From NCBI GenBank assembly GCA_951406725.2, contig OX597817.1, positions 152,644,001-152,708,000 on the forward strand: a stretch of DNA of 64,000 nt, written 5' to 3'. Numbering within the stretch: the stretch's first letter is position 1; each line of letters starts with the position of its first letter. Of this stretch, positions 2,867-39,780 are shown one piece after another. The stretch is from Octopus vulgaris. Taxonomy: Eukaryota. The translations under genes and the position numbers were made by a program. A model generated the notes under the pieces. It worked only from the letters and a program-made list of their open reading frames with translations, ran no database searches and was not told the DNA's origin.

Positions 2867-3229
2867 GGCTCACAGAACATCAAGAAAGAAAACTAAAACA
2901 TACGATGTTACAAAACATCTAAAAGAAAATATACACAGAAATCAACCAGTACCAAAAACGAAAGAGAGTCCTGCTGCATGAACTAAAAAGCACCACTACT
3001 CCACACGAAAGAGACAGATTCATGACAAACATCCAACAAGAATACCGCCGAGTTTAACCATGCCTGTAACAAACACTTCAACAATAGACTCAAGTGGAGG
3101 AAACAGCAACAACAACGATCCCAGCATGTTAAGAATCAATGCAAATACCCAAACAATATCGACGGGATTGTCATGTCAGAATGTAAACTACCAGAGGTCA
3201 TCGACGCCAGGACACTGGAAAACAATACC

Positions 3230-3460
3230 TGTTTCTTTACTATCCACAAGGGGCCAAACATAGAGAGGACAAACAAGGACAGACAGACGGATTAAGTCGA
3301 TTATATCGACCCCAGTGCGTAACTGGTACTTAATTTATCGACCCCGAAAGGATGAAAGGCAAAGTCGACCTCGGCGGAATTTGAACTCAGAATGTAACGG
3401 CAGACGAAATACCGCCAAGCATTTCGCCCGGCGTGCTAACGACTCTGCCAGCTCGCCGCA
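3230..3460 (-). mobile_element. SINE family B, full length, with 20-bp TSD
   Basis: Head GGCGAGCTGGCAGA..., core GTCGACTTTGCCTTTCATCCTTTCGGGGTCGATAAATTAAGTACCAG; TSD GGACACYGGAAAACAATACC at 3210-3229 and 3462-3481. Confidence 0.9.
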
Positions 3461-3659
3461 TGGACACCGGAAAACAATACCGCCAACAACAACAACAACA
3501 ATAAATACGCTTCTGGAAGATATGGTGCAGTACAGCTAGATACAGATGAAATTCATGCTTTAGAGTTACCACCAAAATTCGCTACATGTAAAAAAGTTAG
3601 AAAAATTGATTGTCTGTTTGAAATTGAAAAAAAAACGTTCTTAAAATTAAGATGGAGGT

Positions 3660-4080
3660 TAGGACAATACAACAACGACAACAACAGAAACATACGAAAC
3701 CAAAACAACAACAACAATAGCAATAGCGGTGTTGATGACAACAACAATAGTGGCAATAACAACAACAACCACGACAACCACAACATTCCTCACTCAGACA
3801 ACTATAACAACAACAACAACAAAAGCGTACGAAACAGAAACTACTATTATAATAACAACAACAGTAAGATGATGATAGCAACAATAACAAGAACAACATC
3901 CCACACACAGATAACGATAACAGCCATATCATCCACACCACTACCAACAACACCACCCACAACAATAACAATAGGCACAACACAAGCACTACCACCACCA
4001 CCGCCACCAACAGCAACAACAACAACAACAACAACAACAATACCAGCAACTATAACAACAACAACTACAACGATAATAAC
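3660..4080. repeat. Degenerate (CAA)n/(CCA)n tract
   Basis: Directly visible. Confidence 0.85.
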
Positions 4081-4122
4081 ACTCTGCACTCTGTCTTCTA
4101 TAACCCTAACAAATCTTATGAC

Positions 4123-6430
4123 ATGCCGAGGATCTACCCCACAGACTTACCCTTCAACAAAAGGGTATGTATCCCACCCCAAATTGACAGTGAAACAGAA
4201 GCAAAGATCTCCTTAGCTAGAAATAGACTCCGACATATCTTAGACCGATACAATAAATCCACTAAAAAACATAGTGAGGATGTGACCCACCAATTCAGCT
4301 CATCTGTGGATAAAGGCCTGCAAAAACTGAAACAGCGAATTAGGAACAGAGAATTAGCGTGCCTCCCTAGGGACAAGTCTGGCAGACTATCAATAGACAG
4401 CCCACAGAACTATGTCCAGACCATGCAACAGCACATCAGTAGCATGAGAGAAGTTACACCACAGGAACATGAAAGAGTGGAAAAACTCCTCAAGCTCACA
4501 TGGGAATGTGGTGCAACATAATCGAACCTATAAAAAGGACGGCACACAATTTTCAGGCATCCAACAATGATGTTCCTACACTATACGGAACCCTACATAA
4601 ACCCTACATAAACCCTGTCGTTGGACCCCCAACCAGACCAGTTTGCGGAGTGAATATCTCCAGCAACTATAGACTGTCCTACTTCCTCTCACTGGTATTA
4701 CGACCTCTCATAGAGATGTCTCCAAATGTCTGCGTGAGCACGGAAGATCTCAGTAAAATCAGTTCTTGCAACCATTCCAACGACCTCACAGGTTGTGTAG
4801 TGGGTAGTATGGATGTAATTTCACTCTACCCATCTATAGACATAGATTTTTCTGTGGAGAAACGCATTCAGGTAATCTGTGAGAGTGAGGTGGAGTTCTG
4901 TAAGGTCAACACGAGGGAACTGGACCTCCTCCTCAGACAAAGCTATGACAGTAACGATTTAGATGACCATGACCTCAGTAGATTCTGCCCCACCAGGTCG
5001 CAGAGGGGTGGACCACCCACCATCACTTCAACAGTGAAGAAAGGCACTACAGAGTGCTGAAGTAGCTGGACCACACCCATCAAAAACCCTGAGAACAACA
5101 ATCAGGTGAAAGAAATGATTGCATATGCAATAGGGGTCAGTGTAAAAACCACCTTGAAGAACCACATAGTAAAGTTTAACAAAAAACTATACATGCGGGT
5201 TCAAGGTACAGCCATCGGTGTCGGTGTAACTGGAGATGTGGCCGGCCTCTTCATGACCTGGTGGGACAGAAGACTTAAAGAAATGTTAGCAGAACAGTCC
5301 ACACCTCTTCTACTCTACAGTAGCTATGTAGATGACATTAATATCATAGTTAGAATCAACTCTAGTGATGGTTGTGTAGAAACTGAAAAGAACGTAATGG
5401 AGAGCATCCAGCAAATAGCTAACTCCATCCACCAAAGTATCAAGGTAACTATAGATTACCCCACTAAGCACCCCAACAATAGACTTCCTGTACTTGATAC
5501 TGAACTTTGGTTAGAGACTGTGAACAATAGAGTGCAGCTCCTCCACTCCTATTACATGAAACCCATAATTTCAAAATACGTTTTTCACAAGAACTCAGCT
5601 TTGTCACAACATGAAAATTAACATACATATAGCAGACTTGTTAGGATAATGAACAATGTCTCCCCACTATGCGAACCCTATGAAACGAAAAAAACATATA
5701 CAGAACTTCATGCATCGCATGCAGTTCTCTGGATATGATCAAAAAGATAGGGTTCGAGTATACAGGGGGGCTAGAAAGAAATTAGATAACATTATACGTA
5801 ATGATACCAATGGTACCTGCCCAAGATATAGAAACAAAGAATGGAATAGGATACAAAGAACTTGCGATATAGCAAACAGGGTGAACACGTGATATAAAAC
5901 CGACAAATATCAAGGATTGATGCTTGTGGAGGCCACAGCCCATGGAGAACTAGCCCGTAGATTTAGAAAAGCTCTGAAGGAGACCAAACTCAACATTAAG
6001 ATTGATGAAAAGCCAAGGAACTCCGTCAGATCACAACTATGTAGGACGTACTCCTTTGAGAATACCACATGCACCAATGATAACTGCATGGTATGTAGGA
6101 TTAACCCTGGCATTAACTGTAGAACCAGAAATGTAGTTTACAGCATAAGATGCATAAAAGGTGCTTGTAAAGACATGAACATGACATACATAAGAGAGAT
6201 ATCTAGGAGCCTTGCGGAACGACTAAATGAACATCTGAGACAATATGACGACAAAAAACTGTCCTCCATACTCTACCAACATGCTAAAGACCAGCATGGA
6301 GGCAACCCCGGTCAACTTGACATCCGCATCTTATCCAAGCATCCAAAATACCCAACACTCAGACAAATACGGGAGTGCGTCCTTATAAATGAAACTTCCC
6401 CAATACTGAAGAGGAATATATACATAGTAG
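4123..6430 (+). pseudogene. Penelope-like retroelement ORF (reverse transcriptase + GIY-YIG endonuclease), Naiad-like, disrupted
   Basis: Motifs in order: DKSG; PTLYG..HK...PPTRPV; GSMDVISLYPSI; QGTAIG; YVDD; LPVLD; RMQFSGY; linker CTNDNCMVC..C; NVVYSIRC..C...YIREISRSLAERLNEH...HAKDQH...RQIREC. Frameshifts near 4500 and 5610-5695; in-frame TGA at 5058 and 5890. Confidence 0.92.
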
Positions 6431-6750
6431 ATATCATACCCCCATACCCACAGTTTACACAGGTAGAGTAGAATAGTTAGTGGGCTGTTATATAGATAGA
6501 TGCATGTATGTGTGGGTGGGTGGGTGTATATGCACATGTATGCAAGCATATGGATATGAAAATAAACAGATCAACATACAGACGGATAGGTACATAGATT
6601 ATAGGAGCAGACAAGCACACATACGCAAATGGAGACTGAAATACATGACCATATATACACACACTTTACTTCACACAAGGATATATATGGAGACATGTGT
6701 CCACACATATGAGATGCACATCCATACATACAAACACGGTACATGGTTGC

Positions 6751-25738: not shown

Positions 25739-26581
25739 ATAGAAAAATAGAAAAAGTCCAAAGAAGGGAAGACGGAGAAAAACAAGGGAGACAACGGGAG
25801 TGGGGTGTTTTCATCTTTTAAAACTCACTTCACTGAAGTATAAAATACACTATATTTGGCGAAGTAGTAAAGGGAATATCACCCAGTAAATAATGTACAA
25901 TATTACAGAAAAGTGAAAAAGAAAAATTAGCATATTTAAAAAAAAAAAAATTAGCATATCAAAAAAAAAAAATCATTGACATTAGTTACTCAGGGACGCT
26001 GTCCGTATAAGAAATAATAGCTAACTCAGTGCTAACACATTTAATATAGTGAGCATTCGAATTCTAATTATAAATAATTAGGCGCTGTCGGAAAGACAAC
26101 ATTAGCTCAATGACTAATATTACTTGTAATCATTTCTGCAAGTACAGGAAACATCTCCAGACATGTTTCGGTCTTATTTGATGTTAAGAGGTGAGTATTG
26201 GACAAGTCTATTACTGGATTTGATTGCTATCTTCTGATTATGAGCTTCTGTCTACAGTGTCTAGAGTGTGAAGGCTGTAAAAAAAAAAAAATCCATCTGA
26301 CGTTAAATTCATCAATTAAATTTTTTTTGGCTCACAAATAAATTAGAAACTATGCTCATTAATGCTTCTACATTGTTGTCACAAGATCTCGTGACCATGA
26401 CTCTCTTGCTCTCTCTCTCCCTCTCTCTCTCTCTCACTGTGCGTGTGTATGTACGTATACATACATATATATATGTATATATATACATGTATATATGTAT
26501 ATATATACATGCAAATATATATGGCGGTGCCCCAGCATGGCCACAGCTCATAAGCTGAAACTAGAATCAATCAATCAATCA

Positions 26582-26619
<38 letters not shown>

Positions 26620-26620
<1 letters not shown>

Positions 26621-26820
26621 TTTATTTTAAGCAGCAGAAAATTCAACAAAATCTGTTACTCTGAGTTTCTCGTTGCCGTTCATCAGACAGTATATATGTG
26701 TGTGTGTGTATATACACATATATATATACATACATATGTGTGTGTGGATATATACATACATGTGTGTGTGTATGTGTGTATGTATGTATATATATATATG
26801 TATATATATATATACATATG

Positions 26821-26906
<86 letters not shown>

Positions 26907-27175
26907 AGTAAACACATAAATGTGAAACAAGGTGGAAAAAGAGTACTCAAATACCAGTGGTAGAGTAATATGCTTTATTTTAAGCAGCAGAAAATTCAAC
27001 AAAATCTGTTACTCTGAGTTTCTCGTTGTCGTTCATCAGACGATGAACGGCAACGAGAAACTCAGAGTAACAGATTTTGTTGAATTTTCTGCTGCTTAAA
27101 ATAAAGCATATTACTCTACCACTGGTATTTGAGTACTCTTTTTTCCACCTTGTTTCACATTTATGTGTTTACTCC

Positions 27176-27273
<98 letters not shown>

Positions 27274-27378
27274 CATACATACACACATACACACACACAT
27301 GTATGTATATATCCACACACACACATATGTATGTATATATATATGTGTATATACACACACACACACACATATATGTAT
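26620..27378. mobile_element. Tandem plus inverted array of the family 1 hammerhead/pLTR element
   Basis: Direct repeat 26620-26688 / 26973-27041; palindrome ~26691-27037 vs 27042-27378. Confidence 0.85.
26653..26690 (-). ncRNA. Minimal type I hammerhead ribozyme (family 1)
   Basis: ctgt-CTGATGA-acggcaacga-GAAA-ctc-a-gag-TA-acag: 4-bp stem I, intact core, short stem III, GUA triplet. Confidence 0.8.
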
Positions 27379-28734: not shown

Positions 28735-29540
28735 AGATTGTGTGTGGATAAGAAGGTAGTTTTGTAACCATGTCATTTCGGGTTCAGTTCCACTGCATGA
28801 TCCCCCGGGCGTGTGTTTTCTATTATAGCTACCGGCTGACCAATGCCTTGCGAGCAAATTTGTTGGTTGACGGAAATTGCGAGGAAGCCTGTGGCGTATG
28901 CGTGTGTGTATCTTTGTGTCTGTGTTTGTCACATCTCAACCGTCTGACAATTTGTGTTTACGTCCCCATAACTTTGCGGTTCGGCAAAAAAGACCGATAG
29001 AATAAGTACCTCACTTAAAAATAACATAAGTACTAGCGTCAATTTTCTTCGACTAAAACTTGTCAAAGCGGTGCTCCAGCCTGACTACTATTCAATGACT
29101 TAAAGAAATAAATTATAAAGGCGCGGGAGTGGCTGTGTGGTAAGTAGCTTGCTAACCAACCACATGGTTCCAGGTTCAATCCCACTGCGTGGCATCTTGG
29201 GCAAGTGTCTTCTGCTATAGCCCCGGGCCGACCAATGCCTTGTGAGTGGATTTGGTAGACGGAAACTGAAAGAAGCCCGTCGTATATATGTATATATATA
29301 TATGTATGTGTGTGTGTGTGTTTGTGTGTCTGTGTTTGTCCCCCTAGCATTGCTTGACAACCGATGCTGGTGTTTTTACGTCCCCATCACTTAGCGGTTC
29401 GGCAAAAGAGACCGATAGAATAAGTACTGGGCTTACAAAGAATAAGTCCCGGGGTCGATTTGCTCGACTAAAGGCGGTGCTCCAGCATGGCCGCAGTCAA
29501 ATGACTGAAACAAGTAAAAGAGTAAAAGAGAAAGAGTAAA
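28735..29540 (+). mobile_element. Two SINE family A copies (old 28735-29110; young 29120-29540)
   Basis: Family similarity. Confidence 0.9.
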
Positions 29541-31004: not shown

Positions 31005-31960
31005 ACGTCCGTCTTTTACGCTCTGAGTTCAAACTCCGCTTTTCATCCTTTGGAGGTCGACAGAATAGTATCAATTGAGTATTGAGCGTCGATGTAATCG
31101 ACTTACCCCCCTCCCCCCCGCGCAAATTGCTGACCTGGTGCCAAAATGTCAAACTGAAAAATTAACATCTATAAAGCGTCGAGCTAGCAGAATCGTTAGC
31201 ACACCGGGCAAAATGCTTAGCGGTATTTCGTCTGTCGTTACGTTGTGAGTTCAAATTCCGCCGAGGTCGACTTTGCCTTTCATCATTTCGGGGTCGATAA
31301 ATTAAGTACCAGTTACGCACTGGGGTTGATGTAATCGACTTAATACCTATGTCTGTCCTTGTTTGTCCCCTCTGTGTTTAGCCCCTTGTGGGTAATAAAG
31401 AAATAGGTATTTCGTTCTGAGTTCAAATTCCGCCGAGGTCGACTTTGCCTTTCATCCTTTCGGGGTCGATTAAATAAGTACCAGTTACGCACTGGGGTCG
31501 ATATAATCGACTAAATCCGTCTGTCTGTCCTTATTTGTCTCCTCTGTGTTTAGCCCCTTGTGGGTAGTAAAGAAATTGGTATTTCGTCTACCGTTACGTT
31601 CTGAGTTCAAATTCCGCCGAGGTCGACTTTGCCTTTCATCCTTTCGAGGTCGATAAATTAAGTACCAGTTACGCACTGGGGTCGATGTAATCGACTTAAT
31701 CTCTTTATCCGTCCTTGTTTGTCCTCTCTATGCTTAGCCCCTTGTGGGCAATAAAGAAATAAGAATCGTTAGTACGCCGGGCAAAATGCTTTGCAGCATT
31801 TCGTCCGTCTTCAGGTTCTGTGTTCGAATTCCGCCGAGGTCGACTTTGCCCTTCATTCTTTCGGAGTCGATAAAATACGTATCATTTGAACAATGGGGGC
31901 AATGTAATCGACTTACTTCTTTCCCTAAATAGCTGGCCTTGTGCCAAAATTTGAAATCAA
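31005..31960 (+). mobile_element. Cluster of SINE family B, including one head with three body-tail units (31175-31760)
   Basis: Five core copies in tandem. Confidence 0.9.
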
Positions 31961-32115
31961 TAAATTAACACCCAAATAGGAAAACAGTGCATACAAAGCA
32001 CGTATGCTCATACACATACTTGCAAACACACACGTACACGCATCATGAGCTCTTGCGTGTATATATACTTGCATCCACTCACTCGCATACGCACATGCAC
32101 TCACTCACTCACTCT

Positions 32116-32146
<31 letters not shown>

Positions 32147-32240
32147 CAGAATATTATATAGTATGACCCTGTAGTCTGTTCCATTAAAAAATTTCCTCGA
32201 CGTTCCACATGCTGACGGTTCCGCAGATAACAGATGCCTA

Positions 32241-32279
<39 letters not shown>

Positions 32280-32287
32280 ATCTATCT

Positions 32288-32505
32288 TATTTCTTTATTG
32301 CCCACAAGGGGTTACACATAGAGGGGACAAACAAGGACAAACAAACTAATTAAGTCGATTACATCGACCCCAGTGCGTAACTGGTACTTAATTTATCGAC
32401 CCCGAAAGGATGAAAGGCAAAGCCGACCTCGGATGAATTTGAACTCAGAACGTAACGGCTGACGAAATATCGCCCTGCGTGCTAACGTTACTGCCAGCTC
32501 GCCAC
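32288..32505 (-). mobile_element. SINE family B
   Basis: Family similarity; sits between (ATCT)n tracts. Confidence 0.9.
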
Positions 32506-32513
32506 TTTGACAG

Positions 32514-32602
<89 letters not shown>

Positions 32603-32949
32603 CCTGTCTGCCTATCTCTCCTTTTCTCTATCTGTATGGATGCACGTGTGCGTGAGTGTTTGCGCGTGTTTGTATGCACCACTCAGAGAAGTCGTATATA
32701 CATACACACAGACAAAAACGAACGAAACATCTACAACCACCGGGACCACCAAACACTTCCATCCGCATACAAGTTGACCTCGCAAGATGATATGATTTGA
32801 TCGACATAATAATAATAATTCGACAGCTAATAAGATCGTCTAGTTAAGTTCATAATCAATACAACTGTCTTTATTAAGCTTCGTAGCTTAATCAGTTTTT
32901 ACAGCAGGACTAATTTTTAAATAATGTTTCGTGATACGTTGCATTTCTC

Positions 32950-32999
<50 letters not shown>

Positions 33000-33118
33000 A
33001 ACATACACACGCACACACACATGCGCGCGCACACACACACACACACGCGCGCGCATACACACAAACACATATGAATCTTTGTATGATCTCTGTAAATGTG
33101 TGTAGGTATTTACATTAG

Positions 33119-33352
33119 AAGGCGGCGAGCTGGCAGAACCGTTAGCATGCCGGGCGAAATGCGTAGCCATATTTCGCCTGCCGTTGCATTCTGAGTTCAA
33201 ATTTCGCCGAGCTCGACTTTGCCTTTCATCCTTTCGGGGTCGATAAATTAAGTACCAGTTACGCACTGGGGTCGATGTCATCGACTTAATCCGTTTGTCT
33301 GTCCTTGTTTGTCCCCTCTGCGTTTAGCCCCCTTGTGGATAGTAAAGAAATA
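33119..33352 (+). mobile_element. SINE family B with 16-bp TSD
   Basis: TAGGTATTTACATTAG at 33103-33118 and 33351-33366. Confidence 0.9.
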
Positions 33353-33677
33353 GGTATTTACATTAGCATAATGCATTTCAATCGTACAATGGTTCGTTAT
33401 TCTTGAAAAAAAATACTTCTAAAGTTGTAAGGTATTGATATCAATACATAAATAAATATGCACTCTAATTTACCATGTGTATAGTTTTTATTGTGCGTGT
33501 GTATGTGTGTGTGTATGTGTGTCTTTGTGTGGACGGGTGGGTGAGTGATGGTGGCGTGAAGAGGGAGTTGATGGTAGTAGTGGGTGGACCGTAGACATCT
33601 CGCATGCTTTTTCAGAACTATATATTAACCCATTGCCTGTCATGAGCCCCATTTGGGGATCTCCTAAAAACGAGTGT

Positions 33678-37906: not shown

Positions 37907-39004
37907 CAAGGATTGGACAAGATAATGGAAACACCTAAAAATTTCAAACAAATTTATTTTTATATGAGGTAGGACCGCCTTTGGGAGTAATTACAACTTG
38001 AATTCCACGAGGTATGGAGTCGTACAAAGTTTGAATCGTTTCCAAAGGAATTTTTGCCCATTCTTCAGCTAAAACAGTCTCCAGTTCTTGTAGTGATGAC
38101 GGTGGAGAATATCGACACCTTAATTGTTTTTCTAAAATGCACCATAAATGTTGAATAATATTGAGATCTTGGGACTGTGGTAGCCAGATAAGATGTTCAG
38201 CTTCACTAGAATGTTCCTCGTGCCATTCAGTGGCAACTTTAGCTGTGTGAATTGGTTCATTATCATCCTGAAGGATTGCGTTTTGTTCCCGGAAACAGTT
38301 CCGCAACCATAGGATGAATTTGATCAGATAAAATGCTTAAATAGTCTTGACTATTAATTCTGCCATGAAGGGAAACCATCGGGTCTGTTGATTTCCAAGA
38401 TTTAGCCCCCCCCCCTCCATCCTATTTTATCACAGATCCCCCTCCACGTTTAACTGTTCGATGAAGGCAACCTGGGTCAAATGATTCTTTTGGCTGTCTC
38501 CTGACGTATACTAGGCCGGTGTTCGGAAATACGGTAAAGGATGACTCGTCCGAGAAAATATCCTTCTTCCACTGTTCTAGGAACCAATTCTGTAGGTTTT
38601 TACTCCACTCTAAACGCTTTGCAACGTTTGTTTTTGAAAGTAGTGGTTTTTCGATTGCCGCCCTCCCGTGAAATCAGACTTTGTGTAGCTCCCGGCAAAC
38701 AGTTTTGTGGAAATTGGGTTCTCAAGGTGGCCATTAAGCTCTGCAGTAATTTTGGGAGCCGTACTTTGTAATCCTACCTAACAATTCGCGTAAGAGTCCG
38801 ATGATCCCTATCTGAAAGTTTTGGTTTTCTTCCGGAGTTTTGTTTCGACGAGGAGGTTTCTCCCTTTTTCTCAAAGGCTGTCATTACTTTGAGACAGTAC
38901 TTTTTGATACACCAAACATTACGGCTGTTTTAGTTATGCTAGCGCCTGCCATATGAGCACCAACAATTTGACCTCTTTGAAAGTTCGATAGGTCTGTCAT
39001 TTTT
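37907..39004 (-). mobile_element. Tc1-family transposon, decayed, 5' TIR missing
   Basis: ATG at 39000 (MTDLSNFQRGQIVGA); LQDDNEPIH...WLPQSQDLNIIQHLW; terminal TA-CAAGGATTGGACAAGATAATGGAAACACCT. Confidence 0.9.
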
Positions 39005-39780
39005 TGTTAACACAACGTTTCGGCTGATATCTGTAAACAGTTCTACTCATTACACTCGTGGTTACTATTTCAAATGTTCTCGCTTTGGCTCCCTAAATTA
39101 CCGAAAAAACTGATGCAGCAGATAATACCTTACTGCAGTGGCCTTTGCCGGTTAGAGAACGTATACATTTAAATTTAAATTTAAAATGAGGGTGATAAAT
39201 TAGATATTAATTTCTTAATGATATTAATTTCTTAATGATCTGCAGCATCAGTTTTTCCGGTAAATTAGGGAGCCAAAGCGAGGATATTTGAAATAGTAAC
39301 CACGAGTGTAATGGGTAGAACTGTTTACAGGTCTGACTTTGTGCTGACGTCCTAGTGTGCAAATTATATTCATTTGTACGGTCGAATCGATGATCTACGG
39401 ACATTTATGTAAGTAAAATTACGTAATATGTTAATAGCGAAACATGTATGCGAATGATCCATATTTTTATTGCTTTTTCTTTTGGCTTGTTCAATTACGT
39501 TTTGGTTGTTTTGCTGAATTTTTCTTGAGAACATTTCTTAGTGGTAAGGCCATAGCGGATCTATTTCTAGCATAAGGGTGTCCACATAGTGGTTTCCCTC
39601 TAATATGTATATAATACAATTTTACTGAATCTTCAGGTTTTTTATATGCTAGACCACTGGTGTGAAATCGATGTTAATTAAATTAATATCAAATTTCTCA
39701 CCCTCATTTTAAATTTATATATATATACTTTATTTAAAAGCAGCAGAAAATTCACAAAACCTGTTACTCTGAGTTTACTT
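39005..39780. mobile_element. Composite of pLTR-like fragments with overlapping inverted repeats
   Basis: 39031-39123 vs 39238-39330 inverted; 39170-39213 vs 39678-39716 inverted; hammerhead halves at 39009-39030 (family 2) and 39761-39777 (family 1); 39480-39600 is similar to 51310-51430. Confidence 0.7.

Follow-up and report, generated by a model that had tools for sequence, protein, structure and literature searches.

Two hammerhead ribozyme motifs lying 353 bp apart on one strand, with a microsatellite between them and the whole unit folded into a palindrome, raise the question of what kind of element left them in the Octopus vulgaris genome. An earlier note on the 64,000-nucleotide stretch that contains them (the window) had proposed a retrozyme with a heritable microsatellite cargo. 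The motifs themselves are real: a motif scan found the cores CUGAUGA..GAAA..GUA intact in two minus-strand copies, at 26686 and 27039 (26653 and 27006, originally given as the motif starts, are the 3′ ends of stem I). The predicted cuts fall after 26657 and 27010, which confirms the spacing of 353 nt, and the spacer is made up much as had been described, of 214 bp of AT/GT microsatellite (26691 to 26904) and 137 bp of family sequence (26905 to 27041).

Read from left to right, the locus starts with the 3′ end of an unrelated repeat on the plus strand (26523 to 26584), which we take to be SINE-like. It finishes in (CAAT)n, has a similar stretch at 29471 to 29518, and constitutes the left host flank; the flanking repeats of the locus are presumably octopus-like. 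An (AT)17 target tract (26585 to 26619), evident in the sequence and detected by TRF, adjoins the short, tail-less 3′ end of the element, as at the short ends at 39723 and 26968. The first of three terminal-repeat copies, A1 (26620 to 26690, minus strand), is a 71-bp 5′-truncated fragment with the short 3′ end, identical to A3 across 65 bp. It contains the first minimal type I hammerhead (26653 to 26690, minus strand), with a stem I of 4 bp and a stem II of 2 bp capped by a GCAA loop. After the captured mixed microsatellite follows A2 (26905 to 27041, minus strand), which is 5′-truncated two bases before the hammerhead core and bears a 3′ extension, or tail, of 63 to 68 nt from 26905 to about 26972; its hammerhead (27006 to 27041, minus strand) has a stem I of 2 bp and the stem II loop ACAA. 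A3 (27042 to 27177, plus strand) is an inverted, head-to-head copy with the full tail end, the same end as in the copy at 960 to 1095, and its core is broken: with the two initial core bases missing, and likewise the 5′ strand of stem I, it is not a hammerhead.

At the junction with A3, within the last bases of A2, lies the palindrome centre AGAC (27038 to 27041), which is family-templated, its four bases being present in A1 and A2 and absent from A3. Beyond A3 stands the right-hand copy of the microsatellite (27178 to 27377), which we infer to be the original host flank because the microsatellite continues, unmirrored, for ~28 bp past 27377. In layout, the locus has two direct terminal repeats and an inverted one, which enclose host DNA; one end carries a tail, and the targets are TA, all three 3′ ends adjoining (TA)n. 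An open reading frame scan found none at the locus, and with microsatellites on both sides a target-site duplication is unreadable.

The palindrome spans ~690 bp, the arm at 26691 to 27037 being mirrored at 27042 to 27377. Over 136 bp, the identity between the irregular microsatellite and its mirror is 94.9% (209 bits), while the next-best of the best 25 window matches listed reaches no more than 80% (113 bits); the mirroring is therefore not generic repeat similarity. In this respect the earlier note was right, both in that the whole unit, irregular microsatellite included, is mirrored and in that copying at this locus took in the microsatellite along with element sequence. The mirror stops exactly at the start of A1, whereas the right-hand microsatellite copy goes on.

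Long TA tracts and palindromes are difficult to assemble, and an assembly or library chimera would explain why no contig among those listed from four sequencing runs spans the whole stretch. Read depth past the centre (840, 0, 190, and 1 in the four runs) is at most 0.5% of the adjacent family depth (174,229, 100,883, 166,639, and 5,372). A rare single-locus junction, however, is expected to appear so against a huge family, and the unique flanks resume on both sides. Furthermore, the arms differ at three point-type sites, in four repeat lengths, and in two bases at the tail end, where A2 is shorter than A3 by that much; the centre is family-templated, and the head-to-head design recurs at 960 to 1127 and in joints elsewhere. 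We thus hold a chimera to be very improbable. The stretch, whole or in part, is present in 22 of 24 sequencing-run rows from 11 studies, and the best-matching run (X1) may be the source sample. None of the runs listed as containing the stretch is an RNA run; one (X18) was only guessed to be RNA and was not used as evidence of expression.

To survey the repeat family, contigs of four sequencing runs were aligned to 26893 to 27062. Matching contigs numbered 10,635, 2,505, 4,841, and 400, so the repeat family of the core is a very abundant one. In all four runs (85, 45, 61, and 10 contigs, with a consensus agreement of 0.58 to 0.77), the loose end with the most support at 27041 starts, on the plus strand, with AGTTTTTGCTAG, and it is not microsatellite. 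Read by eye, the complement of this strand extends stem I to 12 of 13 pairs. Since stem I is completed by the 5′ strand of the family, both hammerhead copies at the locus are 5′-truncated inside stem I, and the extended pairing supports a genuine hammerhead in the parent family. Because the top continuation is non-repetitive in 4/4 runs, the microsatellite is, as judged from the top loose ends (293 lesser ones are unlisted), not the normal 5′ neighbour of the family.

Two alternative 3′ ends are found in the family, a short one at ~26968 to 26972 (also at 26620 and 39723) and a long one 63 to 70 nt further out (26905, 27177, and 960). The loose end corresponding to the short form, at 26968, adjoins TA repeats in 79, 11, 30, and 3 contigs of the four runs. 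Five of nine distinct joints, each consisting of one contig with a short side of 20 to 22 letters, read as head-to-head junctions of copies at other loci. At three positions A1, A2, and A3 agree with one another against the copy at 960 to 1095 (the 965 copy); at two of these, the base they carry is a common allele of the family (about 38 to 39% of depth). The run variant table appears to be blind at 27017 to 27037, as it omits 27029, a site at which the three other window copies that cover it depart from the reference; hence it does not give the family's base at hammerhead position 11.1. Sense copies at junctions (26690, 27041, and the joints) begin 0 to 6 nt before the core in six of seven cases, one of them ambiguous; a truncation hotspot in stem I is hinted at by this small and ascertainment-biased sample. 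In the element sense, the sequence 5′ of stem I is a T-rich run that ends in CTAG and resembles a splice acceptor, at the same agreement of only 0.58 to 0.77, and the Drosophila virilis Penelope intron likewise ends at the 5′ side of helix I (PMC4209133).

The window contains two further loci of the family. One is a head-to-head pair (960 to 1127) with the tail at its left end and the short end at its right, without a mirrored flank or microsatellite cargo; stem II of its 960 to 1095 copy is closed by A-U. The other is a solo 54-bp short-end fragment (39723 to 39776) that adjoins (TA)n, is truncated within the hammerhead, and is likewise cargo-free. The family upstream motif occurs in the window at chance level only, with 2 matches at 3 mismatches against 1.85 expected.

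The idea of an active non-LTR retrozyme, from which a 353-nt, mostly microsatellite monomer would be cut out, circularised, and re-inserted so as to spread the microsatellite, can be weighed against the family. In its favor are two complete cores in the same orientation, a stem III that is a short palindrome and could pair between two copies (compatible with dimers), a size within the 150 to 450 bp of animal retrozymes (PMC7229834), and the argument that PLE pLTRs are retrozyme ancestors (bioRxiv 2026.07.22.740005). In animals, non-LTR retrozymes form tandem families that have their monomer in common and for which circular RNAs have been demonstrated (PMC7229834), and a recent definition asks for two consecutive units with complete hammerheads (bioRxiv 2026.07.22.740005). 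Here, instead of at least two full tandem units with complete hammerheads, the tandem extends to only about 1.2 units with a direct repeat of only 74 nt, and a period of 353 is absent among 12 TRF rows. No whole monomer appears to be common to dispersed copies, as judged from the two other window loci, neither of which carries the spacer, and from the top loose ends in four runs.

The state of the ribozymes points the same way. Both copies retain the conserved core and an NUH site, but neither has a closed stem II or a stable stem I. The shortening of stem I noted earlier in the 27006 copy (2 bp) is borne out, and the 26653 copy is clipped as well (4 bp). In both, an A·A mismatch at 10.1/11.1 closes stem II, where the 965 copy has an A-U pair, and the upstream (27039) copy is without the GNRA loop, having ACAA through a private change at 27029, the first loop base. 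The monomer folds of the copies with 4-bp and 2-bp stem I have energies of -0.4 and +4.8 kcal/mol, and in vitro cleavage is poor even for PLE minimal hammerheads that are intact (PMC4209133).

To force the dimeric hammerhead on the minus-strand transcript takes 19.7 kcal/mol if the inverted arm is absent, 42.6 kcal/mol if about 20 nt of it are included (start at 27060), and 234 kcal/mol with the whole arm; these penalties were computed without a positive control, and it is the contrast between transcripts that counts rather than the absolute values. The upstream ribozyme is thus predicted to be buried by the inverted arm in minus-strand transcripts that start outside the palindrome centre. Lacking the native 5′ leader, and with stem I reduced to 4 and 2 bp, the locus is predicted to be inert as a ribozyme unit, and a read-through transcript would form a ~345-bp hairpin instead of releasing a 353-nt circle. 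The 353-nt monomer also folds strongly (z of -7.6), which we rejected as evidence since it arises from the self-complementary AT/GT repeats.

None of the 14 Rfam matches up to E=10 in 26600 to 26720 was a hammerhead, nor was any of the best 150 of 304 matches in the whole window, where the hits were microsatellite-like miRNA models; such a miss is expected for a minimal hammerhead variant. Hammerhead pattern scans returned 0 loci in viral contigs, 0 in a first metagenome scan, and 1 in a second. The last was set aside as unrelated: its DNA looks bacterial, and a single 28/29 match is unaccompanied by further family sequence.

With a non-repetitive family 5′ neighbour, two cargo-free window copies, ribozymes that are truncated and mismatched, and the upstream one predicted to be sequestered, the proposed retrozyme with heritable cargo is unsupported, and we consider it the least probable of the readings. 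The other parts of the earlier interpretation, namely the link to Penelope pLTR hammerheads, with which the layout and the minimal type I motif agree, and the local co-copying of the microsatellite, are upheld. A variant in which the locus is a retrozyme at birth is only a little better placed and still highly improbable: a PLE integration would have trapped the target microsatellite between two hammerheads, and a transcript started near the centre would be cut as a dimer, perhaps helped by a PLE protein, circularised, and re-inserted.

The locus consists of three clipped 3′-end pieces of the hammerhead-bearing family, and we put at about 60% the probability that they were left by a single abortive integration of a Penelope-like element (PLE) into a TA tract, during which ~200 bp of the right-hand microsatellite were copied in inverted form. 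The observations behind this reading are the anatomy, the two 3′ ends, the abutment on TA, the truncation in stem I, and the three variants common to A1, A2, and A3. In a first step, the element's endonuclease would nick both strands of the (TA)n tract, and both ends would prime reverse transcription at two internal starts, yielding A1 with the short end and A3 with the tail end, head to head; such a product would resemble the simpler copy at 960 to 1127. In a second step, the left strand would switch template after 71 nt to the right flank, copying back towards the break and so producing the “cargo,” and would then run through element sequence (A2) and be joined to A3. A jump of the left strand to the right flank would make the mirror end at the start of A1 while the right-hand copy continues for ~28 bp. 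The three bases that A1, A2, and A3 share, unlike the 965 copy, fit one template and one event. Against an abortive integration stands the difference of two bases between the tail ends of A2 and A3, which simple copying does not explain, and the family tail of 63 to 70 nt is about twice the 30 to 40 bp usually reported for PLEs. Moreover, a local and a transduced flank are indistinguishable without an empty allele.

The latter point concerns the possibility, which we regard as unlikely, that the microsatellite flanked a donor copy of the same PLE family elsewhere on its 3′ side and came along on a single occasion in a read-through transcript, possibly antisense and self-priming, to be inserted as tandem plus inverted copies. 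Such transduction accounts for most of the facts explained by local flank copying. The plus strand is a perfect fold-back with a family-templated 4-nt loop, and self-priming on antisense read-through transcripts with simple-repeat flanks, followed by template jumps, has been proposed (PMC3846280). A transduced flank, however, is at odds with the right-hand copy continuing as similar microsatellite past the mirror; no donor lies within the window, and other family junctions have long asymmetric centres rather than tight hairpins.

A simple insertion of A1 and A3 might also have been expanded later by an inverted duplication at the DNA level, for example by a replication template switch at the TA tracts, which are self-complementary; A2 plus cargo is indeed a near-exact inverted copy of A3 plus flank. 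Yet AGAC is present in A2 and absent in A3, so that an extra switch onto A1 would be required, and the duplication begins exactly at the A1 truncation point. We deem this course improbable, and both it and an assembly chimera are less likely than integration or transduction.

The locus is probably a relic of a common kind, namely a tandem/inverted insertion of PLE type that captured host DNA. The assignment to PLEs is a structural one, the family being tied to no coding parent: a minimal type I hammerhead near the 3′ end, a 5′-truncated partial tandem with a head-to-head inverted copy, an optional 3′ tail with two alternative 3′ ends, and an AT-rich or (TA)n target are all present. A decayed Penelope-like coding region in several frames occupies 3440 to 6471 (plus strand) of the window. 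What we take to be RT-like motifs occur in it, and its Cys-rich linker is, we assume, suggestive of Neptune. ESM Atlas neighbours of its C-terminal piece score 0.97, some clusters having GIY-YIG in 13 to 18% of members; Pfam gave nothing significant for the open reading frame pieces at 3868 to 6468, and this decayed RT/GIY-YIG element has no match to the hammerhead family core. The window further contains a cluster of direct and inverted copies of a dispersed ~180- to 410-bp repeat (31176 to 33360; also at 3224, 9062, 17029, and 20299) and a 130-amino-acid frame (37944 to 38336, minus strand) that presumably resembles the C-terminus of a Tc1/mariner transposase.

As read, the locus is of little consequence: it adds a further truncated insertion of Penelope type to an animal genome rich in microsatellites. 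What is less usual is the captured DNA, which seems to be an inverted version of the flank next to it. An inverted target flank between two terminal repeats has modest mechanistic value as a readable footprint of template switching, and the origin of tandem/inverted PLE structures is still listed as open in PMC8557442 and PMC11167929. Among the papers listed by a literature search, judged by title and the beginning of the abstract, none points to inverted flank duplication by Penelope elements. If such events were frequent in this very large family, PLE insertions would duplicate microsatellites locally and create long hairpins. The ability of mobile elements to generate microsatellite families has been published for RTE elements (PMC2887409). 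Should the locus be a retrozyme at birth, target capture by PLEs would be one way in which retrozymes arise and compound microsatellites are spread genome-wide; real interest would arise only under the unlikely retrozyme reading.

Among known systems, animal non-LTR retrozymes share with the locus two same-strand type I hammerheads ~350 nt apart, a non-coding nature, and low GC. They are, however, multi-unit with mostly canonical hammerheads (PMC7229834; bioRxiv 2026.07.22.740005), whereas the locus comprises 1.2 units, with a spacer of its own, ribozymes that are damaged, and an arm in antisense. The minimal hammerheads of metazoan PLE pLTRs share with it a type I core, a short palindromic stem III fit for dimers, mostly truncated copies, and dual motifs 100 to 700 bp apart (PMC4209133). 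By comparison, stem II is here only 2 to 3 bp long, with a GNRA loop and without the G10.1-C11.1 pair, and stem I of the family, though clipped at this locus, is a long one of ~12 pairs (one mismatch, by eye).

For Poseidon PAc of Anolis, cutting and extension of both strands at AT-rich DNA have been shown; the tail is set by two internal starts of the RT, and hammerhead cleavage is unnecessary (PMC11167929). The two alternative 3′ ends downstream of the hammerhead, the AT-rich targets, and cDNA running through an uncleaved hammerhead make it similar to the locus, from which it differs in being a coding and biochemically characterised element; the available part of that account does not mention flank copying.

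More generally, PLE insertions have as their hallmarks 5′ truncation, partial tandems, a neighbouring copy in inverted orientation, one tailed end, and targets in microsatellites (PMC8557442, PMC8969392). Seven short family DNA probes had no match in the supplement of PMC8557442, a weak negative given that its lines are wrapped and long runs cut. Close counterparts are Penelope insertions of Adineta vaga, in which a pair of pLTRs in direct orientation plus an inverted one, host sequence trapped between pLTRs, and palindromes at the junction have been described (PMC3846280). The pLTR layout, the optional tail, the palindrome at the inverted junction, the host DNA between direct pLTRs, and the preference for simple AT-rich targets are all common to both. 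The octopus locus departs from them in its tail (63 to 70 nt, as opposed to about 31) and in having neither a readable target-site duplication nor a linked open reading frame, and, unlike in A. vaga, the DNA it captured is a microsatellite present a second time, in inverted orientation, as the neighbouring flank.
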